Positions 8,025 to 21,168 of a DNA stretch of 64,000 nt are shown one piece after another. Source of the DNA: a phage. The notes below the pieces were generated by a model. It made no database searches, was not told where the DNA came from, and saw only the letters and a program-made list of their open reading frames with translations. Position numbers and translations under genes: made by a program. The stretch lies in the NCBI GenBank assembly GCA_011911785.1, contig GCA_011911785.1_4084.1; one strand, written 5' to 3'. Numbering within the stretch: the stretch's first letter is position 1; the number at the start of each line of letters is the position of its first letter.

Positions 8025-8038
8025 AAAAGATTAAAAAA

Positions 8039-8120: not shown

Positions 8121-8166
8121 TATAATATAAGTATTGTCAGTACTGAAAACTATTTTTAAAAAGTAC

Positions 8167-8229
8167 TTGCATTGTACTTAGATTCAAGTATAATGTTTTA
8201 CATAGAGAGGGGGAAATAGTTCTCCCTCA
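8167..8229 (+). promoter_or_regulatory. sigma70-like promoter (TTGCAT-N16-TATAAT) plus 5'UTR stem-loop (PeSL-like)
   Basis: AAGTAC-TTGCATT-GTACTT; TATAAT 8189-8194; G-rich hairpin. Confidence 0.6.
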
Positions 8230-8248
8230 AAGAATAAGGAATAAAATC

Positions 8249-8470
8249 ATGACTACAATGACTTGCATTTACGCTTCCAATCTTCTGAATGATGCGGCCT
8301 TTAATGTTGATTCAGAATATCAATGTTATCGGGATGAAAATAAAAAAGTTTTTGTAGTTGATAATAATGGTTTCCATATTGAATTACAATCCGGCTTCAC
8401 TGGTGTTGATGGTAAATCAGTATGGGGCGTTCAGGATGATAAAGGCACATATCATTTTAAACGTAATTAA
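8249..8470 (+). CDS. hypothetical protein (73 aa)
   Basis: RBS AAGGAA upstream. Confidence 0.55.
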   Translation: MTTMTCIYASNLLNDAAFNVDSEYQCYRDENKKVFVVDNNGFHIELQSGFTGVDGKSVWGVQDDKGTYHFKRN

Positions 8471-8473
8471 GTA

Positions 8474-8532
8474 TTGACAAAGTATATCAGTACTGTATAA
8501 TAGTTTACATCAAGGGGAGAATAGTTCTCCCC
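8474..8532 (+). promoter_or_regulatory. sigma70-like promoter plus 5'UTR stem-loop (PeSL-like)
   Basis: TTGACA 8474-8479, AGTACTG-TATAAT 8496-8501, hairpin GGGGAGAAtagTTCTCCCC 8514-8532. Confidence 0.65.
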
Positions 8533-8553
8533 GATACTAAAAGGAATAAAATC

Positions 8554-8961
8554 ATGACTACTACTAATCAAGCTCGGTCCATCACCAACGATAAAAATCA
8601 TGCTGCAATGGTCGCTGGTTACATTGAAGCTATGCAATTCAGTACTGTACACAATGAGAACGGCGACTACCTGGAAGATTATGAATTATCAGAGCAAGCC
8701 CATCAAGCGGCAGTGATTGCATGTTCTCGTTTCCTTGAGAAGTTTAGTAATGAAATGGAAGCAGTACAAAAACACCATAATCCTGATTATACTTATAGTC
8801 ATGCAGGTCATGATCTCTTTCTTACCCGCGAAGGTCACGGTACTGGCTTTTGGGATCGTGATATCGGTCACTATGACGATGTATTCACTAAGTACTGCGA
8901 AGAAATCAACGTTTGCGATCCCTATGTAGGCGATGATAATCTAATCTATATGGGCGAATAA
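8554..8961 (+). CDS. hypothetical protein (135 aa)
   Basis: RBS AAGGAA; His/Gly-rich motif HAGHDLFLTREGHGTGFWD. Confidence 0.6.
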   Translation: MTTTNQARSITNDKNHAAMVAGYIEAMQFSTVHNENGDYLEDYELSEQAHQAAVIACSRFLEKFSNEMEAVQKHHNPDYTYSHAGHDLFLTREGHGTGFWDRDIGHYDDVFTKYCEEINVCDPYVGDDNLIYMGE

Positions 8962-8967
8962 AAGTAT

Positions 8968-9026
8968 TTGACAAAGCATATCAGTACTGTATAATAGTTT
9001 ACATCAAGGGGAGAATAGTTCTCCCC
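8968..9026 (+). promoter_or_regulatory. sigma70-like promoter plus 5'UTR stem-loop (PeSL-like)
   Basis: near-identical copy of cassette at 8474; TTGACA 8968-8973, TATAAT 8990-8995. Confidence 0.65.
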
Positions 9027-9048
9027 ACTACTAAAAGGAAACAAAATT

Positions 9049-9321
9049 ATGTCTAGCTACTCCGCTACTATGATCATCAAAGATATGAACGGTAATCCTA
9101 CTTCCGCTGGTGGATCATTTGGAAACATTAACTTAGATGGTCGGTTATCAATGGAATCAGCCATCAATGCAGCGAAAGAAGTTTTTAAGAATGAATGTAC
9201 TGTAAGCAAGCTGGATTATATGGGCTTCGCTATCGAGAAAACTAAACGTTTTGTGGACTACAAAAATCCACTGATGATTGATACTAACCTGAAAGCTAAC
9301 GAAGTGGAATACTTATTATGA
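9049..9321 (+). CDS. hypothetical protein (90 aa)
   Basis: RBS AAGGAAA upstream. Confidence 0.55.
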   Translation: MSSYSATMIIKDMNGNPTSAGGSFGNINLDGRLSMESAINAAKEVFKNECTVSKLDYMGFAIEKTKRFVDYKNPLMIDTNLKANEVEYLL

Positions 9322-9509
9322 CAGTTGATGAAGTTAAAAAAGTACTGGCAGTACTACGCTATCATAATCATTGTAAGGTTAAGAATGATCCTGATTATGT
9401 TGATTCATCCCTGGAGGAAGACACCTTAAACGCGATAAGCCATATGCAAACATTAGCAAAGCGTATGACCGAAAAGAATAGGCCGGACTATATCGGAAAT
9501 AAAATTTAA
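9318..9509 (+). CDS. hypothetical protein (63 aa)
   Basis: ATGA stop/start overlap with previous ORF. Confidence 0.5.
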   Translation: MTVDEVKKVLAVLRYHNHCKVKNDPDYVDSSLEEDTLNAISHMQTLAKRMTEKNRPDYIGNKI

Positions 9510-9516
9510 AAAGTAC

Positions 9517-9578
9517 TTGCATTGTAGTTAGATTAACGTATAATGTTTTATATCGAGAGGGGGAAATGGTTTCCCCTC
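9517..9578 (+). promoter_or_regulatory. sigma70-like promoter (TTGCAT-N16-TATAAT) plus 5'UTR stem-loop
   Basis: TATAAT 9539-9544; hairpin GAGGGGGAAAtggTTTCCCCTC. Confidence 0.6.
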
Positions 9579-9596
9579 AAGTCCAGGAGATACACC

Positions 9597-9863
9597 ATGA
9601 ACACTATCGAAATCACTATCAATGCTCACGTATACGACAACGTAGTACTGCAAACTACTATGACCGCTAACGATACCAGTACTTTGCGGAATACTGTTAT
9701 AAGTGCTGTATGTGCCGCTATCGGTGATGTATCCCTGGAAAACGCAGAACACATCAATAACGGTTTCACTATGTGCAAACGTGATAACGCAAAACATATC
9801 ATCGTAGAAGGTTACGGCGGTGTAGAATATAATCTTTATATGAAAAAAGTACTTGCATCGTAA
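9597..9863 (+). CDS. hypothetical protein (88 aa)
   Basis: track ORF 9543 trimmed to ATG after RBS AGGAGA. Confidence 0.55.
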   Translation: MNTIEITINAHVYDNVVLQTTMTANDTSTLRNTVISAVCAAIGDVSLENAEHINNGFTMCKRDNAKHIIVEGYGGVEYNLYMKKVLAS

Positions 9864-9909
9864 GTAAAACAAAGTATAATGTTTTGCATAGGGGGAGATA
9901 TCCTCCCCC
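9853..9909 (+). promoter_or_regulatory. sigma70-like promoter (TTGCAT-N16-TATAAT) plus 5'UTR stem-loop
   Basis: TATAAT 9875-9880; hairpin GGGGGAGatatCCTCCCCC. Confidence 0.6.
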
Positions 9910-9928
9910 ACTAATAAGGAGTACTACG

Positions 9929-10153
9929 ATGGCTAATCATGATGAACTGATTCGGGAAGTAGCTAACCTGGCGGCAGAAAAGAAATCATTTGATTCTATC
10001 TATAACACCGCTCACCGTGATTCAGTACTGGCATGTAATCAGGATCAAAAAGATGAACTGATCGCAACCTATCATGAAGCGTGGAAGTATTACCGTCAAT
10101 GGGAGAAAGAAGAAAAAGCATCAACCATAAGAGGATTAAATAATCTAGTATAA
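9929..10153 (+). CDS. hypothetical protein (74 aa)
   Basis: track ORF 9884 trimmed to ATG after RBS AAGGAG. Confidence 0.55.
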   Translation: MANHDELIREVANLAAEKKSFDSIYNTAHRDSVLACNQDQKDELIATYHEAWKYYRQWEKEEKASTIRGLNNLV

Positions 10154-10160
10154 CAATAAA

Positions 10161-10189
10161 AGGGGATGATAATATCCCCTTAATAATTT
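10161..10189 (+). terminator. putative intrinsic terminator
   Basis: stem AGGGGAT/ATCCCCT followed by an A/T-rich tract. Confidence 0.45.
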
Positions 10190-10205
10190 CTATAATAGGT
10201 TAACA

Positions 10206-10472
10206 ATGAAAAAGAAAACAACATATCGCTATAATAAAAATTATCAATCCGTTGTATTAGATCACTCTATGCTCCCGCTCGTTGTCCCTGCCGTTGGTGT
10301 AGTCTATCAATCCATATACTGGTCAAGGAAACAACAAAAGTACTTAAAAGGCCCAATAGCACGCTATGAGGGTAATGGTGTATGGTCCGATCCGTTACAT
10401 CCAATCACTACGCGTTATATTGAATATTTTCCTTATTGTGACTACATTGAAATACATCCTAAATTTAATTGA
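10206..10472 (+). CDS. hypothetical protein (88 aa), paralog of 10553-10810
   Basis: shared motif GNGxWxDPxxP...DYIE with the next ORF. Confidence 0.55.
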   Translation: MKKKTTYRYNKNYQSVVLDHSMLPLVVPAVGVVYQSIYWSRKQQKYLKGPIARYEGNGVWSDPLHPITTRYIEYFPYCDYIEIHPKFN

Positions 10473-10477
10473 TAGTA

Positions 10478-10531
10478 TTGACAGTACTAACTGATAGTGT
10501 ATAATGTTTTGCATAGGGGGAATACTCCCCC
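10478..10531 (+). promoter_or_regulatory. sigma70-like promoter plus 5'UTR stem-loop
   Basis: TTGACA 10478-10483, TATAAT 10500-10505, hairpin GGGGG-aatact-CCCCC. Confidence 0.6.
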
Positions 10532-10552
10532 AATATTAAAAGGGGAAACATC

Positions 10553-10810
10553 ATGGAACAATTCACACAATATCGGGTAAATCCTCAAGCTATGGCCTAC
10601 GTAGAAGACCATAAAACGTTACCAGTACTGCAACCAGTTAAAGGCCGTATCTATCGTGGCCTTGCATGGAATACGGCCCAGGATGGATATAAAACCGTTG
10701 CCGTGGGGATGTATTGCGGTAATGGTGAATGGTTTGATCCAAATAATCCGGTAGCTATTGACAGTACTGAAAAAATGAAATGGGCCGACTATATCGAGGA
10801 TATCTCATAA
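10553..10810 (+). CDS. hypothetical protein (85 aa), paralog of 10206-10472
   Basis: RBS AAGGGGAAA; shared motif CGNGEWFDPNNP. Confidence 0.55.
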   Translation: MEQFTQYRVNPQAMAYVEDHKTLPVLQPVKGRIYRGLAWNTAQDGYKTVAVGMYCGNGEWFDPNNPVAIDSTEKMKWADYIEDIS

Positions 10811-10816
10811 AACTAT

Positions 10817-10877
10817 TTGACAGTACTATCATATAGTGTATAATGTTTTACATAGAGCGGGGGAATAGTTCTCCCGC
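10817..10877 (+). promoter_or_regulatory. sigma70-like promoter plus 5'UTR stem-loop
   Basis: TTGACA 10817-10822, TATAAT 10839-10844, hairpin GCGGGGGAAtagTTCTCCCGC. Confidence 0.6.
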
Positions 10878-10899
10878 CAATAGTTTGGAGTAAAACATT

Positions 10900-11100
10900 A
10901 TGTCAATCGCTAACGAAATGATCGCAGTACTGAAAGAAGCTAAAGCCAACCTGATCGACGTAAAGATCCAGGAACTACAATCCGGCTTAATCGGCTGTAC
11001 TTGTACCGCTGGTGGGGCGACAGATTATCGTGAATTCGAATCACTCGAATCGATGGTTCGGTATCTTACAATGATCGTGGAAGATTGGAAGATCATCTAA
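10900..11100 (+). CDS. hypothetical protein (66 aa)
   Basis: RBS GGAG upstream. Confidence 0.55.
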   Translation: MSIANEMIAVLKEAKANLIDVKIQELQSGLIGCTCTAGGATDYREFESLESMVRYLTMIVEDWKII

Positions 11101-11118
11101 CAAAAAAGAATAAAAAAA

Positions 11119-11196
11119 GGGATTGACTCCGGTCAGTCCCTTTGCTATTATATACGCATAGACAAAAACTAGCCCACAGGGTGCATAAGTGTATCC
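11119..11196 (+). promoter_or_regulatory. repeat copy 4 of 4: terminator hairpin fused to promoter plus conserved leader
   Basis: hairpin GGGATTGAC-tccg-GTCAGTCCC then TTT; TATTAT 11146-11151. Confidence 0.65.
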
Positions 11197-11264
11197 AAAA
11201 TATATAGTTAATAACGGTGAGTAACTATCTGCTGGTGGAGTGAAAACTATTAATAAAAAAAGTA

Positions 11265-11293
11265 TTGACAAAGTATATCAGTACTGCAATAAT
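11265..11293 (+). promoter_or_regulatory. sigma70-like promoter (TTGACA-N17-AATAAT)
   Basis: TTGACA 11265-11270, AGTACTG, weaker -10. Confidence 0.45.
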
Positions 11294-11347
11294 GTATCTC
11301 GTAGGGCGGCAATGGTGCGACGGCCCACAAAGTTAGGAGATTCACAA

Positions 11348-11680
11348 ATGAGTACTTCAATCGCCATCGTTAATGCTTTCATCCGTACCAATGTTTCTTC
11401 TGTATTCATCGACGGACTGGATCGGGAAGTAGAATACTCAATCATTATCGCACAGACTGCAAACGGTGCTCGGTATATCCTCAATGATAGCGAAGCAAAT
11501 CACTACTACTACACTAAAGCTACTGGCTTTAAACGCATCGATGCGGACGTAGTATACGCTAAGATGAATAAGCTGGTAGACAAGATTAACGCTAAAGGTA
11601 CTATCGATTTACAGTACTGGACCGAAACCGATCCAGAATATGGATCTCACCGCTACCTGAATCCAGGTATTAAAATGTAA
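11348..11680 (+). CDS. hypothetical protein (110 aa)
   Basis: track ORF 11240 trimmed to ATG after RBS AGGAGA. Confidence 0.55.
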   Translation: MSTSIAIVNAFIRTNVSSVFIDGLDREVEYSIIIAQTANGARYILNDSEANHYYYTKATGFKRIDADVVYAKMNKLVDKINAKGTIDLQYWTETDPEYGSHRYLNPGIKM

Positions 11681-11687
11681 AAAGTAC

Positions 11688-11749
11688 TTGCATAGTACTT
11701 AGTAAAGTGTATAATGTTTTACATAGAGAGGGGGAAATGGTTCTCCCTC
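11688..11749 (+). promoter_or_regulatory. sigma70-like promoter (TTGCAT-N16-TATAAT) plus 5'UTR stem-loop
   Basis: TATAAT 11710-11715; G-rich hairpin 11728-11749. Confidence 0.6.
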
Positions 11750-11769
11750 CTAAATTAAGGAGTACTACC

Positions 11770-12171
11770 ATGACTTTCTCAATCACTTCCTACGCTGACG
11801 TTTTAGTACTGGCTCGGACTTTTGGTAAAGCTGGCATGGAGTATGCTGTAAACAATGGTCACATGCACCCTGAATATTGCCGCATCATTGGAAGCTGTAA
11901 ACGTTGGGCAACTAACAATACGATTGAACTGGAAAACTTCAATGATGGTAACAATGAATATACTGTTGATGCAGTATTTGAAGCCGTTGATCTCGGCGGT
12001 ATCTATAACACTAACCTGAATGATGTGCGTATCGTTCGCACGGGGTTCGGTGCTTATGATGTATCCATCCGTGAAGCTATGGACACGGGATACATTAGTA
12101 AGGACTTGCTCGCTTACATCATGCAGCAGACTAAGGAGCGTAACGAAGCACGCACTATCTTAGGACTGTAA
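11770..12171 (+). CDS. hypothetical protein (133 aa)
   Basis: track ORF 11707 trimmed to ATG after RBS AAGGAG. Confidence 0.6.
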   Translation: MTFSITSYADVLVLARTFGKAGMEYAVNNGHMHPEYCRIIGSCKRWATNNTIELENFNDGNNEYTVDAVFEAVDLGGIYNTNLNDVRIVRTGFGAYDVSIREAMDTGYISKDLLAYIMQQTKERNEARTILGL

Positions 12172-12195
12172 GCATTACACATCACCAAACATCAT

Positions 12196-12215
12196 AGGCC
12201 GCTCTCTAGCGGCCT
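12196..12215 (+). other. GC-rich hairpin (weak terminator candidate, no T-run)
   Basis: stem AGGCCGCT/AGCGGCCT. Confidence 0.3.
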
Positions 12216-12239
12216 TAACTATATCAGGAGTACACACAC

Positions 12240-12449
12240 ATGATCTATACAGTATACAGCGTTCTAGGTACTATTGCAGGCGTACATGATAACGTCGATG
12301 ATGCTATGCGTACAGTACTGCAACAGGTTCCACTAAAGCCTAAGACTATTAAGCAGATGACAGCACGACTAACCAGGGCAAAGGCTGGCGGTGAAGTCTG
12401 GCAGGACTACGCGGATACGCAGATTATCATTGCAGTAAGTAATGATTAA
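12240..12449 (+). CDS. hypothetical protein (69 aa)
   Basis: RBS AGGAG upstream. Confidence 0.55.
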   Translation: MIYTVYSVLGTIAGVHDNVDDAMRTVLQQVPLKPKTIKQMTARLTRAKAGGEVWQDYADTQIIIAVSND

Positions 12450-12492
12450 TGAATTAAATGATTCAGTACTAAAACTATTAGTCAGAAAATAA

Positions 12493-12527
12493 TCGGTGCA
12501 TTTTAAAAATGCATCGTTTTTTATTTT
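12493..12527 (+). terminator. rho-independent terminator
   Basis: palindrome TGCATTTT-A-AAAATGCA followed by TTTTTT. Confidence 0.6.
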
Positions 12528-12684
12528 AACCAGTACACTATAACGTATGAAATAGTTTCGACCTGTGATTATATTCTTAGGCAACTAGGGGCAGGTAATG
12601 CTTAGCTGCGTGTATAGGGGTTCATAGGTGGGACAAAATTGTTTCGTATGCTACAATCATAACAAATAACATAAGGAGAAACCA

Positions 12685-13107
12685 ATGATTAAATTTAAAG
12701 TTGATTATAATTCTAATATACAAATGGATGCAAATGTTCAATTTCCAAAAAACTTACTAAAAATGTCATTCAGTTATCATATACCATCGAATTCTATGTT
12801 GATTGATTGTGTTAATAAGAATGAAGATGTTATGCGTTCAAGTGTTTATTTCATAAGTGATGATTCTGAAATATTTAACATTGAATATTCAGATTATAAA
12901 GGTCAATTTGTTTTAGATACACCCAGTAACCAATATAAATTCAACATTCTTGATGTATCAAATACAGTAATTAGTTCGTTTGATGTGGGTAATTTATCTG
13001 TTCCACATGACAACGGTGTATCTGGGGATTTATATGAAAACACCATGCCATATACTAAACAAGAAAATATGAGTATTAACGATATATGTAATTATTTGAA
13101 AAAATAA
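12685..13107 (+). CDS. hypothetical protein (140 aa)
   Basis: RBS AAGGAGA upstream; AT-rich composition like the downstream arrays. Confidence 0.6.
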   Translation: MIKFKVDYNSNIQMDANVQFPKNLLKMSFSYHIPSNSMLIDCVNKNEDVMRSSVYFISDDSEIFNIEYSDYKGQFVLDTPSNQYKFNILDVSNTVISSFDVGNLSVPHDNGVSGDLYENTMPYTKQENMSINDICNYLKK

Positions 13108-13114
13108 GTTCTAC

Positions 13115-13143
13115 TTGACATCATGCCTCGTATGGGGTATGAT
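13115..13143 (+). promoter_or_regulatory. sigma70-like promoter (TTGACA-N17-TATGAT) heading the small-protein array
   Basis: TTGACA 13115-13120, TATGAT 13138-13143. Confidence 0.55.
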
Positions 13144-13177
13144 GTTTTTTCATATATGAACCTATGGAATTTGCCCT

Positions 13178-13375
13178 ATGCGTATTTTAACCCAAGAAGA
13201 GCATCACGAAAGACTTATCAATAACATGGCTATGATAATGTATAAGTCACATAAACGTGGTAATGCCTATAAACGTGAATTAGTTATGGAACTATTCTTA
13301 GGAACTAACTTACAAAATGAATATGTTAAACTATATGTAAAAGAGTTATGTTTAGAGATAAATGGTAAACTATGA
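13178..13375 (+). CDS. LGTNYQ-family small protein (65 aa)
   Basis: motif FLGTNLQNEYV; first array member. Confidence 0.6.
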   Translation: MRILTQEEHHERLINNMAMIMYKSHKRGNAYKRELVMELFLGTNLQNEYVKLYVKELCLEINGKL

Positions 13376-13572
13376 AAATGCGTACATTAACTCAAGATGA
13401 ATATCATCATATACTACGTAAAAACACGGCAAGGATTTACCAAAGCAATGTGCACTTAGAAAGAGTTGAGTTGTACCTTTTGATTACGATGGGAACAAAC
13501 TATCAGGAAGTGTGGATAACTCACTATTTGGAATCTTTGAAAGCTGACATACGAGCGAGGTGCAAACATTGA
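13372..13572 (+). CDS. LGTNYQ-family small protein (66 aa)
   Basis: motif TMGTNYQEVWI; ATGA overlap. Confidence 0.6.
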   Translation: MKMRTLTQDEYHHILRKNTARIYQSNVHLERVELYLLITMGTNYQEVWITHYLESLKADIRARCKH

Positions 13573-13778
13573 AAATCATAACACAGACACAAGCATTTGG
13601 TCGTATATTGAAATACCTTGATGACATGATAGATATACATAGTGACCTCCCTAAAACTGTAATCGACGCCAAAAGAGCAGAATATCGCATGATGGCTGTA
13701 CTGGACACAAACTTTCAGGAAGAGTATGTCAATGATTGGATTGGATTTTTAATTGAAGATATAAAGAGTAAACTATGA
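13569..13778 (+). CDS. LGTNYQ-family small protein (about 69 aa), probable TTG start
   Basis: motif VLDTNFQEEYV; RBS GAGG 9 nt upstream of TTG overlapping the previous stop (TTGA). Confidence 0.5.
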   Translation: MKIITQTQAFGRILKYLDDMIDIHSDLPKTVIDAKRAEYRMMAVLDTNFQEEYVNDWIGFLIEDIKSKL

Positions 13779-13987
13779 TTATATTAACACCAGAGCAATA
13801 TAGGAAACGTTACAATTCTAAGCAGATTGAAATCTTGCTGATATATGCAGACAGGGATGATGTATACTTATCAAAAGTTATGGAAAAAGAATTACTTATG
13901 GGTGTCTTCTTAGGAACTGACCACCAGAAATCTTATGTCCAAGAGTATCTAATAGCTCTTGAGAAATACATCAGGAGTAAACTATGA
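13775..13987 (+). CDS. LGTNYQ-family small protein (70 aa)
   Basis: motif FLGTDHQKSYV; ATGA overlap. Confidence 0.6.
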   Translation: MIILTPEQYRKRYNSKQIEILLIYADRDDVYLSKVMEKELLMGVFLGTDHQKSYVQEYLIALEKYIRSKL

Positions 13988-14208
13988 ACTGCATTAATAA
14001 CTTTGAATACGAGGCTCGCTCAAGGTGTGCATCTCAAAAAGAGAACCACATTTACTTCACTATGATGTACTTATCTTGGAATGAAATTGAAGAAATGGTT
14101 GCTGAAGTATGGCTGTTTGAATTCATGGGGACGCAGTATCAGAATAGGTTTGTGGGTGAGTATCTTAATGTTCTTATGAAACATATAGAAAGAAAGGGAA
14201 TGAACTAA
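13984..14208 (+). CDS. LGTNYQ-family small protein (74 aa)
   Basis: motif FMGTQYQNRFV; ATGA overlap. Confidence 0.6.
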   Translation: MNCINNFEYEARSRCASQKENHIYFTMMYLSWNEIEEMVAEVWLFEFMGTQYQNRFVGEYLNVLMKHIERKGMN

Positions 14209-14459
14209 TGAAAGTATTATCAAGCACTGAGTATCAATCTGCCCTATTCTCTCTTATCAATACCCTTCGCAAGAACAATGAACTTTATCCTTCCCCTGAG
14301 AATGATGTAGTTAATGGTGACGTGTTTCTACTTAAATTCGTTGGGACTAATAAACAAGTTATCTTCACTGATCGTTATATCAATGCACTAAGAAACCTTG
14401 TAGCGTATAAAACCCGCCAGGCCAAAAGAGAATGGAAGAGACAATGCGATCCAGAATAA
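14208..14459 (+). CDS. LGTNYQ-family small protein (83 aa)
   Basis: motif FVGTNKQVIF; TAATG overlap. Confidence 0.6.
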   Translation: MKVLSSTEYQSALFSLINTLRKNNELYPSPENDVVNGDVFLLKFVGTNKQVIFTDRYINALRNLVAYKTRQAKREWKRQCDPE

Positions 14460-14692
14460 ATCACATCATGTACGTTAAACTATTTCAGAAACTAATCCAC
14501 AAACACTATGATACAGTATCTGATAAACTCACTAATGATATCAGCAGACTTATTCACTGTGAAGCAGAGATGCTTGTACTGATGACGGGAGACGATACAC
14601 AAACAATCGCTAAGGCAATAGAGAACTATCTGGAAGCATATCAACAACATATAAGAACGGAAGTCTGGAGACGAGAGAATGAAAATCCTTAG
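14432..14692 (+). CDS. divergent LGTNYQ-family small protein (86 aa)
   Basis: degenerate motif LMTGDDTQTI; start may be ATG 14444. Confidence 0.5.
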   Translation: MEETMRSRINHIMYVKLFQKLIHKHYDTVSDKLTNDISRLIHCEAEMLVLMTGDDTQTIAKAIENYLEAYQQHIRTEVWRRENENP

Positions 14693-14894
14693 TGGGTATG
14701 AATATTACAGGCTGTTGCGAACTATACAAGCAAAAGTTTCTAGTATTTCTTTAAACAAATCTATTGCACAAGTGGACAAATGTGTTATAATAACTGAAAT
14801 GAAGCTATCTATCTTCATTGGGACAAACTATCAAAGCATCTACACTGACGCATGGTTAGCAAGTCTACGTAACAAGGTGATATCCAGAGAATGA
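14679..14894 (+). CDS. LGTNYQ-family small protein (71 aa)
   Basis: motif FIGTNYQSIY. Confidence 0.6.
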   Translation: MKILSGYEYYRLLRTIQAKVSSISLNKSIAQVDKCVIITEMKLSIFIGTNYQSIYTDAWLASLRNKVISRE

Positions 14895-15109
14895 AAAATT
14901 TACAAGGTTTTGAATATATTAAGCTTCTGCAAACCTGTGAAATCCAAAGAAGAAAGATTCAAAAGGCTAAAAGAATTACCGCAGAACGAAAGTTTACACT
15001 GATAACTGAAGTCTATGTAGAGGCACTCTTAGGCACAAACTATCAACAAACGTATATAGACCTATGGATCGATGCACTCCAGAAAGAGGTTAAAAGTAAA
15101 TGCAAATGA
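14891..15109 (+). CDS. LGTNYQ-family small protein (72 aa)
   Basis: motif LLGTNYQQTY; ATGA overlap. Confidence 0.6.
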   Translation: MKNLQGFEYIKLLQTCEIQRRKIQKAKRITAERKFTLITEVYVEALLGTNYQQTYIDLWIDALQKEVKSKCK

Positions 15110-15324
15110 TTAATTTAAGTAAAGATGAATATTATGTACGTCTTGCAAAAACTTATTCATTACGCAAGGCCATTTATGAAAGTCACATTATTGAACAATC
15201 AAATAAGTGGATTGTAGTAAATGAGATCAAGATGCTTTCAGTCTTAGGAACAAACTATCAAGCGAGTGCTGTACTGAAGGTCATTAATGCACTTCAAAAT
15301 GAGGTCCAAAGTAAATGCAAATGA
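15100..15324 (+). CDS. LGTNYQ-family small protein (74 aa)
   Basis: motif VLGTNYQASA; conserved junction AAATGCAAATGA. Confidence 0.6.
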   Translation: MQMINLSKDEYYVRLAKTYSLRKAIYESHIIEQSNKWIVVNEIKMLSVLGTNYQASAVLKVINALQNEVQSKCK

Positions 15325-15578
15325 TTAATTTAAGTCAAGATGAATATAACGAGCGACTTGCAAAAATCTCACCTAAACGTAATGCAATCTATCACAGCCA
15401 AGAAATTCAACACAGTAAGAAGATGATTATGTTTCGTGAGTTAAAGATGGGTGTCTTCTTAGGAACAAACTATCAAGAGACAGAAGTAAATCGCGTCATA
15501 ACCGAGTTACTCATGGAAATCAGAGGTAAGCTGTACTTTCATCAAATGACCCAACCACTGAGGTGTAATGAGAAATGA
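15315..15578 (+). CDS. LGTNYQ-family small protein (87 aa)
   Basis: motif FLGTNYQETE; same junction as 15100. Confidence 0.6.
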   Translation: MQMINLSQDEYNERLAKISPKRNAIYHSQEIQHSKKMIMFRELKMGVFLGTNYQETEVNRVITELLMEIRGKLYFHQMTQPLRCNEK

Positions 15579-15811
15579 ATAAAATTAATAACATCAACTT
15601 AGCAGAAAGATTTGATAGAATTGGGGAAGCTCTGAGAAGATACGATAAAGCATATGGTCATTTAAGCTTTACCATAGAAACGAGATATGCCCTTGAAGAA
15701 GAGTTTAAAATGCATAGTCTCTTAGGCACACAGTATCAAAATCAATATGTTCAAAATTGGATTGAACTTTTAATCCAAACAATTCATGTGAGGAACATAA
15801 AATGCAAATGA
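15575..15811 (+). CDS. LGTNYQ-family small protein (78 aa)
   Basis: motif LLGTQYQNQY; ATGA overlap. Confidence 0.6.
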   Translation: MNKINNINLAERFDRIGEALRRYDKAYGHLSFTIETRYALEEEFKMHSLLGTQYQNQYVQNWIELLIQTIHVRNIKCK

Positions 15812-16056
15812 TATACTTAACAGACGATGAAATAAAAGAAAGAATAATTAAATCCAGAAAACATACAAATCAACTTCCAAAAGACCCAAATCAAACCCCT
15901 GCTGAAAGGAGTGCAGAAGTATTATATCAACAACTCCTGTACTTTCTTGGGACTGATAGACAGGATTATTATGTTCGATCGATTCTTAGATATCTTAAAA
16001 TGACTATTCAGGAAAAGATACATGACCAAATATATAAAAATCTTAACAGTCAATGA
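15802..16056 (+). CDS. LGTNYQ-family small protein (84 aa)
   Basis: motif FLGTDRQDYY. Confidence 0.6.
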   Translation: MQMIYLTDDEIKERIIKSRKHTNQLPKDPNQTPAERSAEVLYQQLLYFLGTDRQDYYVRSILRYLKMTIQEKIHDQIYKNLNSQ

Positions 16057-16279
16057 ATATCATAAGATTATCATGAAGACTAATATTGAGAATTCTAAAA
16101 AATCAAATACCAAGTACATTCTGGAACACACATTTGAAGAACGACAATTAGCTTTAGTTGAAGCAAAACTTCTTGCACTATTAGGGACTAACTATCAAGA
16201 CGAGTACGTAAGAAAACTAATATACCTTTTAACTAAACATATAAGAAAAAGAAAAGCACATGAAACACTTGACAGATGA
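16022..16279 (+). CDS. LGTNYQ-family small protein (85 aa)
   Basis: motif LLGTNYQDEY. Confidence 0.55.
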   Translation: MTKYIKILTVNEYHKIIMKTNIENSKKSNTKYILEHTFEERQLALVEAKLLALLGTNYQDEYVRKLIYLLTKHIRKRKAHETLDR

Positions 16280-16490
16280 CGAATACGGTGTTATCATCCT
16301 TGATGTTATCAATAAAGAATACCATAGGAAACAACGATACGCTTGTTATGAAGATAAACAGCTTTCTATAGCTGAACAACAATTAGTTCATTTATTAGGA
16401 ACAAACTATCAAGAACAATGCACTGAACGTTACCTGTATCTACTGTCGAGGAAAGCAAAAAGAGATTATGAAAATTTTAAACGAAGGTGA
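16260..16490 (+). CDS. LGTNYQ-family small protein (76 aa)
   Basis: motif LLGTNYQEQC. Confidence 0.6.
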   Translation: MKHLTDDEYGVIILDVINKEYHRKQRYACYEDKQLSIAEQQLVHLLGTNYQEQCTERYLYLLSRKAKRDYENFKRR

Positions 16491-16683
16491 TGAAGTAATA
16501 TTACTTATAGAGAATTCAAGTAAATTCTTAAACATATCACTGTCTGATATAGATGAAGATGACAAAGAAGTACTGAGAGCAGATTTAAGAGTACTGTTAC
16601 ATCTCGGAACAAACCTACAAGAGCAATTCGTTGAGGACTACATCGATGAACTTAAAGAATCAGTACTGAGAAGATGCAAATGA
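16468..16683 (+). CDS. LGTNYQ-family small protein (71 aa)
   Basis: motif HLGTNLQEQF. Confidence 0.6.
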   Translation: MKILNEGDEVILLIENSSKFLNISLSDIDEDDKEVLRADLRVLLHLGTNLQEQFVEDYIDELKESVLRRCK

Positions 16684-16925
16684 AAATCCTTTCACCAAGT
16701 GAATACCACGAACTATTAAGTAGTTTAATTCCAAAGTTACATCGTAGCTGGTCAGCAGAATTATCACAGGATGAAAAAAATATTCTAATAAGTGAAATCT
16801 ATGTTCTAGCTACTATAGGAACTAACTATCAAGAACACATCATCGTGGATTATATTAATACACTTCAAAGGTCTATCCAATGCAAATGCGAATCATTACC
16901 GGAGAAGAATACCGAACAATCATAA
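16674..16925 (+). CDS. LGTNYQ-family small protein (83 aa), C-terminally extended
   Basis: motif TIGTNYQEHI; the usual KCK-stop junction has lost its stop, giving a 13-codon read-through tail. Confidence 0.55.
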   Translation: MQMKILSPSEYHELLSSLIPKLHRSWSAELSQDEKNILISEIYVLATIGTNYQEHIIVDYINTLQRSIQCKCESLPEKNTEQS

Positions 16926-17122
16926 ATGGACTGTTTTTGAAGTTATTTGCCATTAACACATCAAAACTACCAGACACGGATAAAATTATTAAGTTAAATG
17001 AAATCTACGTTCAAGCAACTCTAGGAACTAACTATCAAGAAGCCAATGTTTATAATTACATTAATACACTTAAAAGGGTAATACAATTAAAATGCACAGA
17101 CAGCACATACACAAACCCCTAG
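16880..17122 (+). CDS. LGTNYQ-family small protein (80 aa)
   Basis: motif TLGTNYQEAN. Confidence 0.55.
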   Translation: MQMRIITGEEYRTIINGLFLKLFAINTSKLPDTDKIIKLNEIYVQATLGTNYQEANVYNYINTLKRVIQLKCTDSTYTNP

Positions 17123-17322
17123 GAACAGCAGAATACCTTGAACTAATGGCAGCAAACTTCTCATCCTTTCAGAAACTGATGCAAGAATCAAATAATGATT
17201 TAGAATATCATATCAAAAGTTCAGATTTAAGATTGTTACTCACTCTAGGAACAGACAGTCAGTACCAATTCGTACAGGAGCATATTAGAGCACTTTTAAA
17301 TGGCATCAGGAATAAACTATGA
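17092..17322 (+). CDS. LGTNYQ-family small protein (76 aa)
   Basis: motif TLGTDSQYQF. Confidence 0.55.
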   Translation: MHRQHIHKPLGTAEYLELMAANFSSFQKLMQESNNDLEYHIKSSDLRLLLTLGTDSQYQFVQEHIRALLNGIRNKL

Positions 17323-17534
17323 AGACAATATCTAATCAAGAGTACTTAGAACTATTCAGAAAGAATAATCACAAATTTTTAGTACTTGATACAAGAACTG
17401 ATATAGGGGAACTTGAAAAAAATCTTTTGCGTTCAGAGATGATAGTACTGACACTCTTAGGAACACAGCACCAAGAGAGAACTGTTAATTCACACATAGG
17501 GATTCTTATACAGATAGTACAGGAAAAGATATGA
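17319..17534 (+). CDS. LGTNYQ-family small protein (71 aa)
   Basis: motif LLGTQHQERT; ATGA overlap. Confidence 0.6.
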   Translation: MKTISNQEYLELFRKNNHKFLVLDTRTDIGELEKNLLRSEMIVLTLLGTQHQERTVNSHIGILIQIVQEKI

Positions 17535-17752
17535 GAATCATAACACAACAAGATATTCTTAAGTTCACAAGGGTTCATGCATCTGAATTTGATGCTATAT
17601 TATCAAAAAGTTACAACAACCCTTATACAGAAGATGTACACTACAGTGAATTATGGGTGTATATACTTTTAGATACAAATTATCAAGAGCAAGCAGTACA
17701 GAAGTATTTGACAGCTTTAAGTACTGCTATTGCTAATGGAATAGGTGTTTAA
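17531..17752 (+). CDS. LGTNYQ-family small protein (73 aa)
   Basis: motif LLDTNYQEQA; ATGA overlap. Confidence 0.6.
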   Translation: MRIITQQDILKFTRVHASEFDAILSKSYNNPYTEDVHYSELWVYILLDTNYQEQAVQKYLTALSTAIANGIGV

Positions 17753-17754
17753 AA

Positions 17755-18096
17755 ATGAAAACTAATATTCAACTTAAGGTTTATAAATCATTTGCAAGTA
17801 CATATATCAAATGCAGTCTATGTAAAGATGTAATGGACTACAAAGGTAAGCCATTCACGATTACTTACGATTCTACAAGAGGTTTTTATATATCTTTTGC
17901 TGATTACAAATATAACATGTACGAACACATTGACATTAAAGATTTAAGTACTTTATCTGAAGAAGAATACTTTCAAGAATCATTAGTATGGGATTTAGAG
18001 TTTCCTATGCCATTGGTACATAAGATGATAGTACTAATAAAAGAAACTAAACAGGAGCCTAATAGTGCTTATGAAGAACACATTATTGAGTACTGA
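17755..18096 (+). CDS. FQxS-motif family protein (113 aa)
   Basis: motif EEEYFQESLVWD. Confidence 0.65.
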   Translation: MKTNIQLKVYKSFASTYIKCSLCKDVMDYKGKPFTITYDSTRGFYISFADYKYNMYEHIDIKDLSTLSEEEYFQESLVWDLEFPMPLVHKMIVLIKETKQEPNSAYEEHIIEY

Positions 18097-18099
18097 ACC

Positions 18100-18330
18100 A
18101 TGAAAAGATTATCATTCGAAGAGTACTGCAAGCTTATTAATACTTTACAACCACAAATAAAACAAATAAATTCTCTTCCTATATCCCAAGAAGAACGTGC
18201 AGTACTGAAAGATGAGTTAATTTTAAAATGCACAGTAGGTACTAACTATCAAGCTGATAGTGTTCGTTATCTAATTTGGGGTTTAATGTGCATAATAGAG
18301 AACAAAGCAGTTGACAGTACTCTAATGTAG
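18100..18330 (+). CDS. LGTNYQ-family small protein (76 aa)
   Basis: motif TVGTNYQADS. Confidence 0.6.
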   Translation: MKRLSFEEYCKLINTLQPQIKQINSLPISQEERAVLKDELILKCTVGTNYQADSVRYLIWGLMCIIENKAVDSTLM

Positions 18331-18378
18331 TGCTATAGTACTTGTACTTTTCGAGCGTTCTAATAGAGGGTACAGATT

Positions 18379-18624
18379 ATGTTAAAATTTTTAAATTTTC
18401 TTATCGTCTTGTGTATTGTTCTTGGGATTGCACCGTTTGTATTAGCGTATCTGGATTCAGATGAAATGCACAAGATGAATTGCACAAAGACAGGACAGAG
18501 TAGAAAAGAGACGGTTATGATGCCCGTAACGGTTATTGTGAATAACATGCCGATTACAAACATGGTCCCTACCCTAACGACAACGTACCAGTACTCTTGC
18601 GATGACGGAGAGAGATGGAGATGA
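18379..18624 (+). CDS. hypothetical membrane protein (81 aa)
   Basis: N-terminal hydrophobic helix FLNFLIVLCIVLGIAPFVLAYL; RBS AGAGGG. Confidence 0.45.
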   Translation: MLKFLNFLIVLCIVLGIAPFVLAYLDSDEMHKMNCTKTGQSRKETVMMPVTVIVNNMPITNMVPTLTTTYQYSCDDGERWR

Positions 18625-18958
18625 TGCGATAATGCGTAAGATCAATTGTATAAAAAGAGCGAATACATGTTTCATTGCGTTGACCAATGTACCGGGTGGG
18701 TCTGGTGTTAAGATATTTGAGTACAATAAAGTTGATAATTGTTTCTATTGGGTAGAAGGTATCAAATCATATGAAAATACGATAGCAGTACCGAATCTAG
18801 TTGATATCTCTGAAGAAGAAGAGTTTCAGTACATGTTAGTACACGATGATTCTTTTGGGTTGACATACAAAGAGATGAAGGAAGTACAAAGGCAGATGAT
18901 ATCATGTATGAATATTTCTAAGCATTTCCTTCAAAATATTCATCCAATTTACGTATAA
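18602..18958 (+). CDS. FQxS-motif family protein (118 aa)
   Basis: motif EEEEFQYMLVHD. Confidence 0.6.
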   Translation: MTERDGDDAIMRKINCIKRANTCFIALTNVPGGSGVKIFEYNKVDNCFYWVEGIKSYENTIAVPNLVDISEEEEFQYMLVHDDSFGLTYKEMKEVQRQMISCMNISKHFLQNIHPIYV

Positions 18959-18967
18959 GAGATTAAT

Positions 18968-19303
18968 ATGAAATTCAACATTCATAGAATTAATTCCGGT
19001 TGTATATTTGCTTATACGCATGAGAATTACAAGAAGTACATGAATCATGAAGTACATTATGTTTTTGAGGACGGTAAAGAATATTTTGCTTATTTGAGTC
19101 CCAGGAGTTTAGGTAAGTACGAGTTGCTTCAGGATCTTTCTCTTATGCAGGAAGATGAATTATTTCAGTACAGTCTAATTCATGACCCTTATATGTTTGA
19201 TATAGATATTATGTGCAGTTTACAGAAGAGGATGAAAGAAGTTTGGGATTCGATTAAAAGAGGTGATTGTATAGAATATGATAGTATACAAGAAGATGCC
19301 TAA
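18968..19303 (+). CDS. FQxS-motif family protein (111 aa)
   Basis: motif EDELFQYSLIHD. Confidence 0.65.
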   Translation: MKFNIHRINSGCIFAYTHENYKKYMNHEVHYVFEDGKEYFAYLSPRSLGKYELLQDLSLMQEDELFQYSLIHDPYMFDIDIMCSLQKRMKEVWDSIKRGDCIEYDSIQEDA

Positions 19304-19496
19304 CGGATATGAATTGAAGTACAGACAGTTTATTCGAAATGTAGATTCAGATCCTTTTAATGTTAAAATGGCAGAGTTTGATTTATTATTTTATCTAGGA
19401 ACGAGAGCACAGCCACAATTCGTTGATGCATACATAAGGGCTTTACGAACAGAGATAGTATGCACACCAAAGGAGTCTAAATGTACAAAAATGTAA
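19278..19496 (+). CDS. LGTNYQ-family small protein (72 aa)
   Basis: motif YLGTRAQPQF. Confidence 0.55.
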   Translation: MIVYKKMPNGYELKYRQFIRNVDSDPFNVKMAEFDLLFYLGTRAQPQFVDAYIRALRTEIVCTPKESKCTKM

Positions 19497-19738
19497 ACCA
19501 TCATTTGTACGCATCGAAGTACAGGGATTTTTGTTTACAAGGGGGCGATGAAGATTTTGCTCTGCGATTATCGGAATTTAATATGTTATTTTATCTTGGT
19601 ACATCAGTACAAGAAGAAATGGTACAGAAATTTATCAAGCACCTTGAGCGAAAAATTCATACGCAAATTTTGGTTGTTAAGTTACAGAATGAGATAAATG
19701 AATACAATGCAGAATCTAACAATAGTACAGGATCTTAG
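19481..19738 (+). CDS. LGTNYQ-family small protein (85 aa)
   Basis: motif YLGTSVQEEM. Confidence 0.55.
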   Translation: MYKNVNHHLYASKYRDFCLQGGDEDFALRLSEFNMLFYLGTSVQEEMVQKFIKHLERKIHTQILVVKLQNEINEYNAESNNSTGS

Positions 19739-20099
19739 ACCAGTAATAATGATGTTAAATGCAAGACGAGATTTATGGCACGAAATGCATAACAAGAAGG
19801 ATTCATTTGCACAAATCAATTTAGTCTTTCAGGAGTTAATCCAGAGTGCATTGGGTGTTATCGAACCAAAATACAAAGATGGTATATTCTGTGTAAAGAA
19901 TGCAGTTCGTCCTCATGCAATTCCAAGGAAAATTAAGTTAGCCAGATTAACATTTGACGAGAGGGATTTCTTCAGTTATAATCCCAGTACAGCTTTATAT
20001 TTTATTCCTGATTCAGACAAATATCATCCTATCCATTACGGATGGATTATGTCTTATATAGTAAATGAAACGGAATACCCTATTAAATGGGAAAGATGA
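19698..20099 (+). CDS. hypothetical protein (133 aa), possibly a divergent array member
   Basis: ORF in array context; weak LVFQELIQSAL segment. Confidence 0.5.
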   Translation: MNTMQNLTIVQDLRPVIMMLNARRDLWHEMHNKKDSFAQINLVFQELIQSALGVIEPKYKDGIFCVKNAVRPHAIPRKIKLARLTFDERDFFSYNPSTALYFIPDSDKYHPIHYGWIMSYIVNETEYPIKWER

Positions 20100-20275
20100 T
20101 GATAGATACAAAGACATTAAATGCATTACAGGATTCATTATTAGATAGTATTAAGCTGTATTACAATATGCATTTGAGGGGTGGTATCAATGATTACAAT
20201 TATTATTTGAGTGTAATTATATTTGAGCATCTTTCAGTACAGGATAGAATTTTACACAAGTACAAACATTATTGA
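20087..20275 (+). CDS. hypothetical protein (62 aa)
   Basis: ORF coupled to neighbours. Confidence 0.4.
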   Translation: MGKMMIDTKTLNALQDSLLDSIKLYYNMHLRGGINDYNYYLSVIIFEHLSVQDRILHKYKHY

Positions 20276-20286
20276 GGAAACAAAAT

Positions 20287-20646
20287 ATGTTCAATAAAAT
20301 CATGTTCATTTTAACATTTGTGTTTTTATCATTCACAAACACCGCTCATGCAGCACAGGCAGTACAGGCATCATCGGATGTACCGTTATATGAAACATAC
20401 AAATTTGATTGCAGATTACAGAATAATGAAATAATCAATATCTTTTTACACAATACAGAAGTACCTTATTTGCAGATTGAAGCAACGAAGTACATGTATT
20501 ATGGTACGAATTCGGTACAGGAATTTTTATTTAAACACACAGAACAGGATGTAATTATATCATTGCAGTACGTTGATAGTTCATTGTCTTTAATGCATTT
20601 CAAGAATGCAGAGGGATTAGTTACAGTGCTCAAATGCTATAGGTAA
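20287..20646 (+). CDS. predicted secreted protein with Sec-type signal peptide (119 aa)
   Basis: N-terminus MFNKIMFILTFVFLSFTNTAHA-AQA; RBS GAGGAAA; contains YYGTNSVQEF segment. Confidence 0.55.
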   Translation: MFNKIMFILTFVFLSFTNTAHAAQAVQASSDVPLYETYKFDCRLQNNEIINIFLHNTEVPYLQIEATKYMYYGTNSVQEFLFKHTEQDVIISLQYVDSSLSLMHFKNAEGLVTVLKCYR

Positions 20647-20652
20647 TAATAT

Positions 20653-21168
20653 ATGAATGAAATTGAATTATTAACGCACAAGATTAGTACAATAATGCTT
20701 ATGCTCAAAAATAATCATCCTATACATAAGTACATTGATATAGATGAATTACGCATAGAAGATAGGCATGGTAAATTATCGTTTATGTTTCACAATGCAA
20801 ATAATGCAGGGAATGTTAACGTTTGTTTTGCAGCATTTACCCAAGCCAATCCAGTACAAACATCTCCTGTTGTATACGAAAATAAAGAAGGGTATTTGTG
20901 GGTAAACACAAACGATTATTTCTTTTATGATTTGAAACAAGATGATGAAGTAGAAGAACGAATTGATTTAATTGATATTAGTACAGATTGTAGTGCTGAA
21001 TTATTTCAGAAATCGTTATTATATAGTCCTCGTCAAATGCATTATCTAAAGTTATTCAGTTCATTGTACGCGAATCCTTTAATTAAGGGTTTTAAATTTT
21101 ATATAAAAGTTCCTGACATTCAAGCAGTTTATGATATTTTGATGCAAGGATATAGTTATGAAGTATAG
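20653..21168 (+). CDS. FQxS-motif family protein (171 aa)
   Basis: motif AELFQKSLLYS. Confidence 0.65.
   Translation: MNEIELLTHKISTIMLMLKNNHPIHKYIDIDELRIEDRHGKLSFMFHNANNAGNVNVCFAAFTQANPVQTSPVVYENKEGYLWVNTNDYFFYDLKQDDEVEERIDLIDISTDCSAELFQKSLLYSPRQMHYLKLFSSLYANPLIKGFKFYIKVPDIQAVYDILMQGYSYEV

Follow-up and report, generated by a model that had tools for sequence, protein, structure and literature searches.

A tandem array of small paralogous genes in an Asteriusvirus-like jumbo coliphage

Organization of the Array and Family Membership

The stretch of phage DNA analyzed here (64,000 nucleotides of contig GCA_011911785.1_4084.1, NCBI GenBank assembly GCA_011911785.1; hereafter the window) carries a tandem array of small open reading frames (ORFs) that encode proteins of about 70 residues and belong to one family, 21 of them contiguous at 13178–17752 and the other five starting at 18100, 19278, 19481, 28543, and 28761. 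The existence of the family is already known from databases; the array is real, ancient, under selection, and structurally unplaced, and in kind it is a lineage-specific multigene family of a giant virus. An earlier inspection of the letters of the window (the sequence-only reading) had pointed to about 26 ORFs with an LGTNYQ motif, all of which are present on the + strand at the positions listed below. A hidden Markov model (HMM) of the family separates exactly 26 ORFs from the rest: in a search of all six-frame ORFs of at least 30 codons in the whole window (n = 942), the 26 score E ≤ 4e-15 and the next ORF scores E = 0.46.

Because this HMM was built from the 26 sequences themselves, which makes the test circular, the search was repeated in leave-one-out form, and 25 of the 26 members were regained at E values between 1e-7 and 1e-21 when excluded from training. 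The member at 14432–14692 reached E = 0.2, yet it was still the top-scoring sequence among the non-training ORFs. Aligned to the rest of the family with hhalign, it matches over its full length and in register (E = 5e-5, probability 67.5%); TGDDTQ replaces GTNYQ in this protein, and each of the five genomes compared below has its ortholog. The alignment and HMM check that the sequence-only reading had proposed accordingly returns one family of 25 robust members and one divergent member, with none further in the window.

In the MAFFT alignment, the members share the two motifs that had been described before, namely an N-terminal M-K-I-L-(T/S)-x-x-E-Y and a C-terminal L-G-T-N-Y-Q...V..YI..L...I..K, in which the motif T never varies and the Q and one L are kept in at least 90% of members. 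In PHROGs v4, all members but one (25 of 26) match phrog_4148, listed under “unknown function” (best E = 2.8e-27, profile positions 1–73 of 74), and 10 members also match phrog_28039. Net charge ranges from -8 to +8 and the isoelectric point (pI) from 4.4 to 9.7, with a pI of at least 8.5 in 14 of the 26 members and a conserved K/R at alignment position 70. The grand average of hydropathy (GRAVY) is below 0 in all members except member 8 (+0.09), and judged by this index no member appears hydrophobic enough for a membrane protein. The family alignment contains no conserved Cys/His pattern. The closest pair of paralogs is formed by members 10 and 11, with 53% identity.

The features of the array and its flanks are as follows.

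12494–12525, +: terminator-like hairpin with T-run, 3' of the last terminal-repeat-side gene (12240–12449)
12519–13173, +: lineage-specific insertion at the terminal repeat/array junction, with a 140-aa ORF (12685–13107) of no known family
13115–13143, +: sigma-70-like promoter at the array head, TTGACA-17-TATGAT, matching the consensus at 11/12
13117–13146, +: hairpin with a 13-bp stem followed by a T-run, enclosing the head promoter
13178–13375, +: member 1, 65 aa, the shortest
13372–13572, +: member 2, 66 aa, ATGA overlap with member 1
13560–13778, +: member 3, likely start TTG at 13569 (TTGA overlap, giving MKIIT...)
13775–13987, +: member 4, 70 aa
13984–14208, +: member 5, 74 aa
14208–14459, +: member 6, 83 aa
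14432–14692, +: member 7, 86 aa, divergent (TGDDTQ)
14679–14894, +: member 8, 71 aa
14891–15109, +: member 9, 72 aa
15100–15324, +: member 10, likely start at the second ATG, 15106 (ATGA overlap)
15315–15578, +: member 11, 87 aa, likely start 15321
15575–15811, +: member 12, 78 aa
15802–16056, +: member 13, likely start 15808
16022–16279, +: member 14, 85 aa, 35-nt overlap with the preceding gene
16260–16490, +: member 15, 76 aa, holding an in-coding promoter-like site at 16269–16297 (11/12)
16468–16683, +: member 16, 71 aa, the most acidic (pI 4.4, net charge -8)
16674–16925, +: member 17, likely start 16680 (ATGA overlap)
16880–17122, +: member 18, 80 aa, 40–46 nt overlap with the preceding gene
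17092–17322, +: member 19, 76 aa
17319–17534, +: member 20, 71 aa
17531–17752, +: member 21, 73 aa, end of the contiguous run
18100–18330, +: member 22, 76 aa, with a 113-aa ORF outside the family (17755–18096) between it and the run
18311–18339, +: promoter-like site TTGACA-17-TATAGT (11/12), resembling the terminal-repeat-side cassette and probably serving the genes from 18379 on
19278–19496, +: member 23, 72 aa
19481–19738, +: member 24, 85 aa
28543–28770, +: member 25, 75 aa, outlying pair
28761–28967, +: member 26, 68 aa, GTG start, outlying pair

Phage Identity and Position Beside the Terminal Repeat

A megablast search with positions 13000–20000 matched only 34 records, all 310–386 kb in size and all from the 121Q/PBECO4 group (genus Asteriusvirus), 30 of them phages of Escherichia and 4 of Salmonella. 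Most matched at about 82% identity; phage A4 reached 97.8%, but over only 54% of the query. The source phage is an Asteriusvirus (121Q/PBECO4-like) jumbo coliphage and not a T4-type phage, and the T4-type setting in which the array had initially been viewed was not borne out, as the DNA matches Asteriusvirus-type records exclusively.

The direct terminal repeat of the related phage fEgEco12 is 20,993 bp long and experimentally supported (PMC13070987), and the first family gene of that genome starts at 21,091, about 100 bp past the repeat. Positions 10–12518 of the window align to fEgEco12 7868–20902 at about 90% identity and are followed by a 655-bp segment that is absent there, after which the array aligns from 13174 on, at only 71–86%. 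From this alignment and the repeat length, the array would be the first transcription unit after a left terminal repeat of about 21 kb, and the difference in identity indicates that it is markedly more diverged than the repeat. The junction at 12519–13173 is an insertion hot spot: in phage A4 and in a metagenome contig, the place of the 655-bp insert is taken by a 272-aa ORF, and in 121Q and fEgEco12 only about 250 bp separate repeat and array.

On the terminal-repeat side, the window encodes a ParE-like toxin domain (6551–6802, E = 6e-11, above the Pfam cut-off) and a GNAT acetyltransferase (3025–3378, E = 6e-9), both typical host-modifying functions, as well as a weak protein-kinase-like match (7440–8021, E = 1e-3, below the Pfam cut-off). 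The array occupies a place at which phages usually have their early genes for host takeover.

No other paralog family in the region is as large as that of the array, and multigene families fill much of the 64-kb window, in which all coding is on the + strand. A second paralog family of 111–143-aa proteins is interleaved with the array tail (17755–18096, 18602–18958, and 18968–19303) and recurs at 24896–25252, 30268–30636, 30636–30974, and 32901–33332, with the shared motif D(L/I)S..EE(E).FQ..L(V/I).D. The three array-interleaved members match phrog_13866, and the PHROGs assigned to the ORFs within the array tail are all of unknown function. Further tandem families comprise seven proteins of 147–210 aa (26106...35379, within 26106–36011) and five of 87–115 aa (54032–55379).

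Age, Selection, and Distribution of the Family

The array was compared among five genomes, namely the window, 121Q, fEgEco12, A4, and Salmonella phage SD-15_S21. The HMM search counted 26 copies for the window, 27 for the locus of 121Q, and 32 for fEgEco12; SD-15_S21 has about 27, and the short locus of A4 has at least 23. Best matches between genomes are collinear and 55–100% identical, whereas the best paralog within the window is only 32–53% identical, and Tandem Repeats Finder detected no gene-length period in the DNA. The low identity among paralogs, the absence of a DNA-level period, and the collinearity of orthologs indicate that the duplications predate the radiation of the genus. The same three observations rule out a recent amplification of the “genomic accordion” type. 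Neighboring paralogs are slightly closer to each other at the protein level than non-adjacent ones (28.5% vs. 24.5% identity), a value that none of 5000 permutations reached. Orthologs with at least 55% identity in all four comparison genomes were found for 15 of the 21 contiguous members, and the remainder is lineage-variable.

The ratio of nonsynonymous to synonymous substitutions (dN/dS, Nei-Gojobori) of ortholog pairs has a median of 0.34–0.37 against 121Q, fEgEco12, and SD-15_S21 at a dS of about 0.4–0.5, and the family is under purifying selection. The ratio is 0.14–0.18 in the terminal-repeat-side genes and about 0.3 in the genes to the right of the array, and the dN of the array is 3–5 times that of the terminal-repeat-side genes at similar dS. 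Frameshifted fragments of a single degraded gene, which had been named as the outcome that would speak against a gene family, can be excluded, because the orthologs are intact and collinear in five genomes and evolve under purifying selection. The sequence comparison thus supports a true tandem family of intact small genes that are, as far as their reading frames tell, separately translated.

The family has a narrow distribution. A word-indexed search of 5.8 billion proteins gave 133 matches, and an exhaustive HMM search of 1.84 billion representatives gave only 94 clusters, none with E < 1e-30 and nearly all of 52–121 aa. The clusters that were traced lie on Asteriusvirus contigs of roughly 350 kb or on fragments of the same layout, or else in Klebsiella RaK2-type phages. 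Multiple family copies occur in 36 of 36 Asteriusvirus records of the phage collection, and the sole outgroup is the Klebsiella RaK2/K64-1 group. Many of the traced contigs are labelled “Escherichia coli”, and Asteriusviruses have been reported to be common in bacterial assemblies (bioRxiv 10.1101/2024.12.31.630880). A protein identical to P0001 is likewise recorded on a contig annotated as Escherichia coli, which fits the frequency of Asteriusviruses in E. coli assemblies. A megablast search against complete RefSeq E. coli genomes gave no match.

The 16-kb RaK2 locus contains one clear family member (ORF362, 121 aa, E = 1e-11), two weak matches, and a 52-codon ORF that lacks an annotation (E = 7e-7). 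The small number of RaK2 copies compared with about 26–32 indicates that the expansion is specific to Asteriusvirus. The 52-codon ORF lies upstream of ORF362 at 7710–7868 of the locus (...LLRNLGTPSQEECVQEYINRLI) and appears to be a miniature or truncated member that annotation missed. Two unusual architectures were also observed. A 111-codon ORF at 6158–6493 of the SD-15_S21 locus is found twice in the domain table, suggesting two matches to the family domain and possibly a fusion of two units, and P0191 of phage UB (269 aa) combines the family domain with a 200-aa extension that matches neither Pfam nor PHROGs and lacks homologs in the window and the other loci.

Predicted Fold and Private Segments on a Shared Scaffold

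Two members were modelled with AlphaFold2 using the 26-sequence alignment. The model of member 11 (87 aa, predicted local distance difference test score (pLDDT) 94.6) has helices at residues 8–17, 19–26, 33–47, and 54–79, with residue 4 bridged to residue 51, the motif T; that of member 1 (65 aa, pLDDT 96.9) has helices at 6–24, 29–39, and 46–64, with residue 2 bridged to residue 43, again the motif T. Both models have the same core despite a length difference of 22 residues, which is absorbed between helix 1 and helix 3. The predicted fold is a domain of three to four helices, the C-terminal one long, whose N-terminal strand pairs with the GT(N)YQ turn. The models bear out the earlier impression of helical mini-proteins, while the two-helix bundle or helix-turn-helix (HTH) that had been suggested as their fold gives way to a domain in which a strand is stapled to the GT turn.

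The conserved columns are mostly hydrophobic and spaced at i/i+3/i+4/i+7 (L4, Y9, L13, I23, L43, L47, V56, Y59, I60, L63, and I67). In the models, the (T/S)5-x-x-E8 pattern lies exactly at the start of helix 1, where it would fit a helix capping box, and the G-T-N-Y-Q turn closes the domain onto the N-terminal strand, so that the conserved motif probably acts as a folding staple and not as a catalytic or ligand site.

Searches for relatives of this fold returned little. Foldseek against solved structures gave no significant match, with HMG boxes among the weak top rows, and no PDB entry reached E ≤ 1 in a sequence-profile search. When the 26 members were scanned with Pfam, NCBIfam, and PADLOC, no family was common to more than one member; the PADLOC hits were seven different models with one member each (best E = 3e-4), which provides no consistent match to a defence protein. 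An assignment as HTH or ribbon-helix-helix proteins was rejected, as there is no fold or profile similarity, and the array proteins fall into none of the characterized protein families.

The part of the protein that differs most between paralogs is the middle. Alignment columns 14–39, comprising the end of helix 1 with helix 2, a loop, and the start of helix 3, vary in length and are only 11% identical between paralogs (all pairs), whereas between orthologs (56 pairs) they are 72% identical and match the scaffold (73–75%). The dN/dS of these columns is 0.41 compared with 0.33 for the scaffold, a difference that is not significant (bootstrap 95% interval -0.03 to +0.21). Since the middle segment is unrelated between paralogs but kept between orthologs, each paralog has its own maintained segment, or surface, on a common scaffold. 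Such a pattern points to long-standing functional specialization and neither to redundancy nor to a current arms race at those sites.

Gene Junctions, Probable Coupling, and Transcription Signals

The 21-gene run is tightly packed, with zero intergenic gaps. The 20 junctions consist of 12 overlaps of 4 nt (ATGA or TTGA), one TAATG, and seven overlaps of 14–46 nt. Where the longest ORF starts with MQMKIL..., the second ATG restores both the family-typical MKIL start and an ATGA overlap, and the preceding protein then ends in ...CK. For members 14, 15, and 18, the upstream starts were kept, as the start-codon heuristic had picked starts inconsistent with the family. Conserved C-terminal codons (e.g., AGG AGT AAA CTA TGA) provide a Shine-Dalgarno (SD)-like sequence together with the start codon of the next gene, and an SD match of at least 4 nt precedes 52% of the genes compared with 23% of random positions in the region. 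As the C-terminal codons of each gene hold the translation signals of its neighbor, the unit of repetition is a gene that carries these signals with it, as expected from unequal crossing-over.

Across the whole window, TTGACA-N16-18-TATAAT sites matching at 11/12 or better occur 31 times on the + strand and twice on the - strand, against 2.1 ± 1.4 per strand in shuffled sequence. At the array head, a single 11/12 site (13115–13143) lies in the 70-bp gap ahead of gene 1, and no gaps follow. A terminator-like hairpin overlaps this site, which might therefore also end the transcription of the inserted ORF ahead of it. Gene 1 of 121Q and fEgEco12 is preceded by unrelated sequence, in which a TTGACT-16-TATTAT site and a good ribosome-binding site are nonetheless present. 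A predicted sigma-70-like promoter is therefore found directly upstream of the first gene in two lineages with unrelated upstream sequence. Further 11/12 sites occur at 16269, inside coding sequence where LTDDEY codons spell TTGACA by chance, and at 18311, after member 22. No convincing intrinsic terminator was found within the 21-gene run.

A single promoter had been proposed for the whole run. For the 21 contiguous genes this is plausible, given the site at 13115–13143, although the sites at 16269 and 18311 match the consensus equally well. It does not extend to the scattered members, since those at 28543 and 28761 lie about 9 kb beyond, behind other promoter-like sites, and the site at 18311 precedes the later members.

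The terminal-repeat side is organized differently. The + strand at 2048–11293 contains 15 sigma-70-like sites, 13 of them perfect (TTGACA-N16/17-TATAAT), in a repeated cassette of about 60 nt (aGTATTGACAaaGTAtatcAGTACTGTATAATaGTTTACATcAAGGGGAGAAtaGTTCTCCCC). In the cassette, the promoter comes first and a GC-rich hairpin next, at what is predicted to be the 5' end of the transcript, and almost every small gene in that interval has a cassette ahead of it. An Rfam scan identified no family in the window, the cassette included.

In the distantly related phage PA5oct, terminal-repeat genes are highly transcribed and early, nearly all early transcription uses one strand, and infection is sensitive to rifampicin and dependent on the host RNA polymerase (PMC7318152). 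Together with the promoter consensus and the position of the array, this makes early, host-polymerase-driven, polycistronic expression a reasonable inference, and the array is likely to be expressed as a single mRNA with coupled translation.

Possible Function of the Array

The reading we favor, if tentatively and with somewhat less than even confidence, is that the array is an early-expressed repertoire of specific binders, most plausibly of host proteins in the service of takeover or anti-defence. The host RNA polymerase would transcribe the array early as one mRNA, and coupling would drive its translation. Each paralog would then bind and modulate a different partner, most likely a host protein, through its private middle surface, which would be carried on a shared scaffold of an N-terminal strand on the G-T turn, a hydrophobic core, and a long C-terminal helix. 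Copies would be gained and lost between phage lineages, reflecting host differences, and those retained would be held by purifying selection. Products of the family were not detected as structural virion proteins in phage phAPEC6, whose virion proteome lists nothing between gp347 and gp549, a range that includes the family with gp470c, although small proteins are easily missed by mass spectrometry.

Several points weigh against a repertoire of host binders. A literature search found no expression, interaction, or phenotype data for family members or for Asteriusvirus early genes, and profile, structure, and library searches found no similarity to characterized anti-defence or takeover proteins. 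An arms race still under way has a different signature from an ortholog dN/dS of about 0.3 with no faster change in the variable segment, and the tight coupling of the 21 genes may instead reflect that their products assemble together. Early timing is deduced from position, promoter consensus, and a distant relative (PA5oct), and the overlap of the head promoter with a terminator-like hairpin makes its predicted activity uncertain.

Co-assembly would mean that the paralogs form an intracellular, hetero-oligomeric phage structure, for example a replication or organization scaffold, in which the scaffold face serves as the interface and translational coupling sets the stoichiometry. The gapless run with its 12 of 20 ATGA/TTGA junctions, the long amphipathic C-terminal helix and conserved hydrophobic pattern in all copies, and the conservation of each copy among orthologs, which fits fixed positions in an assembly, are consistent with such a structure. 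Overlapping starts and stops are, however, ordinary in phage genomes, the family is absent from the phAPEC6 virion proteome, and the variation of copy number (26–32) and membership among close relatives, with 15 of 21 members universal, is hard to fit with an obligate assembly, so that we regard this explanation as unlikely. We judge it equally unlikely that the proteins are small nucleic-acid-binding regulators, either transcription factors or RNA binders, each with its own site and together tuning the temporal program of the phage. They are small and helical, 14 of 26 are basic, a K/R is conserved at position 70, and HMG boxes appear among the weak Foldseek rows; there is also a precedent of expanded putative regulators in a jumbo phage, Bacillus phage G (PMC7824862). 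The spread of pI from 4.4 to 9.7 indicates, on the other hand, that the members are not uniformly nucleic-acid-binding.

That the array is dispensable “stuffing”, left by old tandem duplications to fill an enlarged capsid under weak selection and without a function per copy, seems improbable. Copies are indeed gained and lost between genomes, and the dN/dS is above that of the terminal-repeat-side genes (0.3 vs. 0.14–0.18). A ratio of about 0.3 over a dS of about 0.4–0.5 nevertheless amounts to clear purifying selection, the paralog-specific segments are conserved as much as the scaffold, the frames are intact and collinear in five genomes with the family in all 36 Asteriusvirus records, and the models are confidently folded. 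An artefact, whether chance ORFs or frameshifted pieces of one degraded large gene, has nothing in its favor beyond the small size of the ORFs and may be considered refuted, as the HMM separates the 26 from all other ORFs, the start/stop architecture is conserved, selection is purifying, and single units fold independently with high confidence in the models.

A modular adaptor system is a further reading, and a rather doubtful one. The invariant face (E8/Y9, E40, and G-T-N-Y-Q) would dock all paralogs on a common hub, and the 26 private surfaces would recruit different host targets. The hub may be a host machine, such as a protease or the RNA polymerase, or else a modifying enzyme that the phage encodes in the neighboring early region. 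If true, this would amount to a programmable and expandable targeting library on a fold unseen among solved structures.

If the reading of one scaffold with many surfaces is correct, the array would offer a panel of 26–32 small, well-folded natural binders, whose targets would map the E. coli functions or defences that the phage needs to neutralize. Asteriusviruses also rank among the virulent phages that are most frequently found to persist in E. coli isolates. Should the functional guess prove wrong, the family still provides a compact fold without a solved relative and a clean system for the study of paralog divergence in phages. The array is a tractable and worthwhile experimental target, and on present evidence it overturns nothing.

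Comparison with Known Systems

The family corresponds to phrog_4148 and to “hypothetical proteins” of 121Q (genes about 319–341), PBECO4, phAPEC6 (e.g., gp470c), and fEgEco12 (g057–g084), with collinear orthologs; these records attest its existence only, without a name, structure, function, or published analysis of its organization and evolution. The Asteriusvirus genome papers on Sharanji and fEgEco12 make no mention of paralogs. Hua et al. (2017, mBio, PMC5646251) mentioned “very similar” duplicated genes as evidence of genome growth by duplication, without coordinates or analysis. Their passage probably means this array; the array paralogs, at 32–53% identity, are not very similar. The array is among the largest single-family expansions in a coliphage, comprising about 5% of the genes of a 350-kb genome, and most jumbo-phage genes have no known function.

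Among jumbo phages, Bacillus phage G has a lineage-specific expansion of about 35 zinc-ribbon proteins, which were proposed to be regulators (Iyer et al., 2021, PMC7824862). The likeness lies in tens of copies of a mini-protein in a jumbo phage. The array differs in its all-helical domain, which lacks a conserved Cys/His pattern and stands in place of the zinc ribbon, and it belongs to another phage group, with no homology between the two.

Hyperplastic regions of T4-type phages reportedly carry promoter-stem-loop (PeSL) cassettes, a description credited to Arbiol et al. in 2010. Similar traits are the small ORFs, the head promoter in a stem-loop, and, on the terminal-repeat side, a promoter and hairpin cassette repeated 15 times. 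The genes of the array, on the other hand, lack individual cassettes and are paralogs instead of shuffled unrelated ORFs, and the genome is not T4-type. An interpretation as a T4 hyperplastic-region feature was accordingly rejected, given the absence of intergenic gaps in the 21-gene run, the promoter-in-hairpin at the head only, and the non-T4 genome.

In phage SPO1, gp37–60 form an early host-takeover module within the terminal redundancy. This module and the early genes in the direct terminal repeat (DTR) of PA5oct (PMC7318152) resemble the array in their left-end position, host-type promoters, small uncharacterized proteins, and use of one strand. Takeover modules consist, however, of unrelated genes with a promoter each, which is the pattern of the window at 2000–11300, whereas the array is a single paralog family with one promoter and lies outside the repeat.

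Multigene families are also found at the variable ends of large DNA viruses, such as MGF100, MGF110, and MGF360 of African swine fever virus (ASFV) and the terminal host-range families of poxviruses. Together with the takeover modules of large phages, they are the closest functional analogues of the array, which is like both in position, turnover, and probable timing. These families and the array differ in that there is no kinship of sequence or fold and that the array belongs to a bacterial virus, encodes much smaller proteins, and forms one coupled operon. They are alike in having a cluster of paralogs adjoining the terminal repeats, copy-number differences between isolates, and divergent copies that are individually retained. 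In the phages compared here, the cluster begins about 100 bp past the terminal repeat of fEgEco12 and comprises at least 23 to 32 copies in the five genomes.

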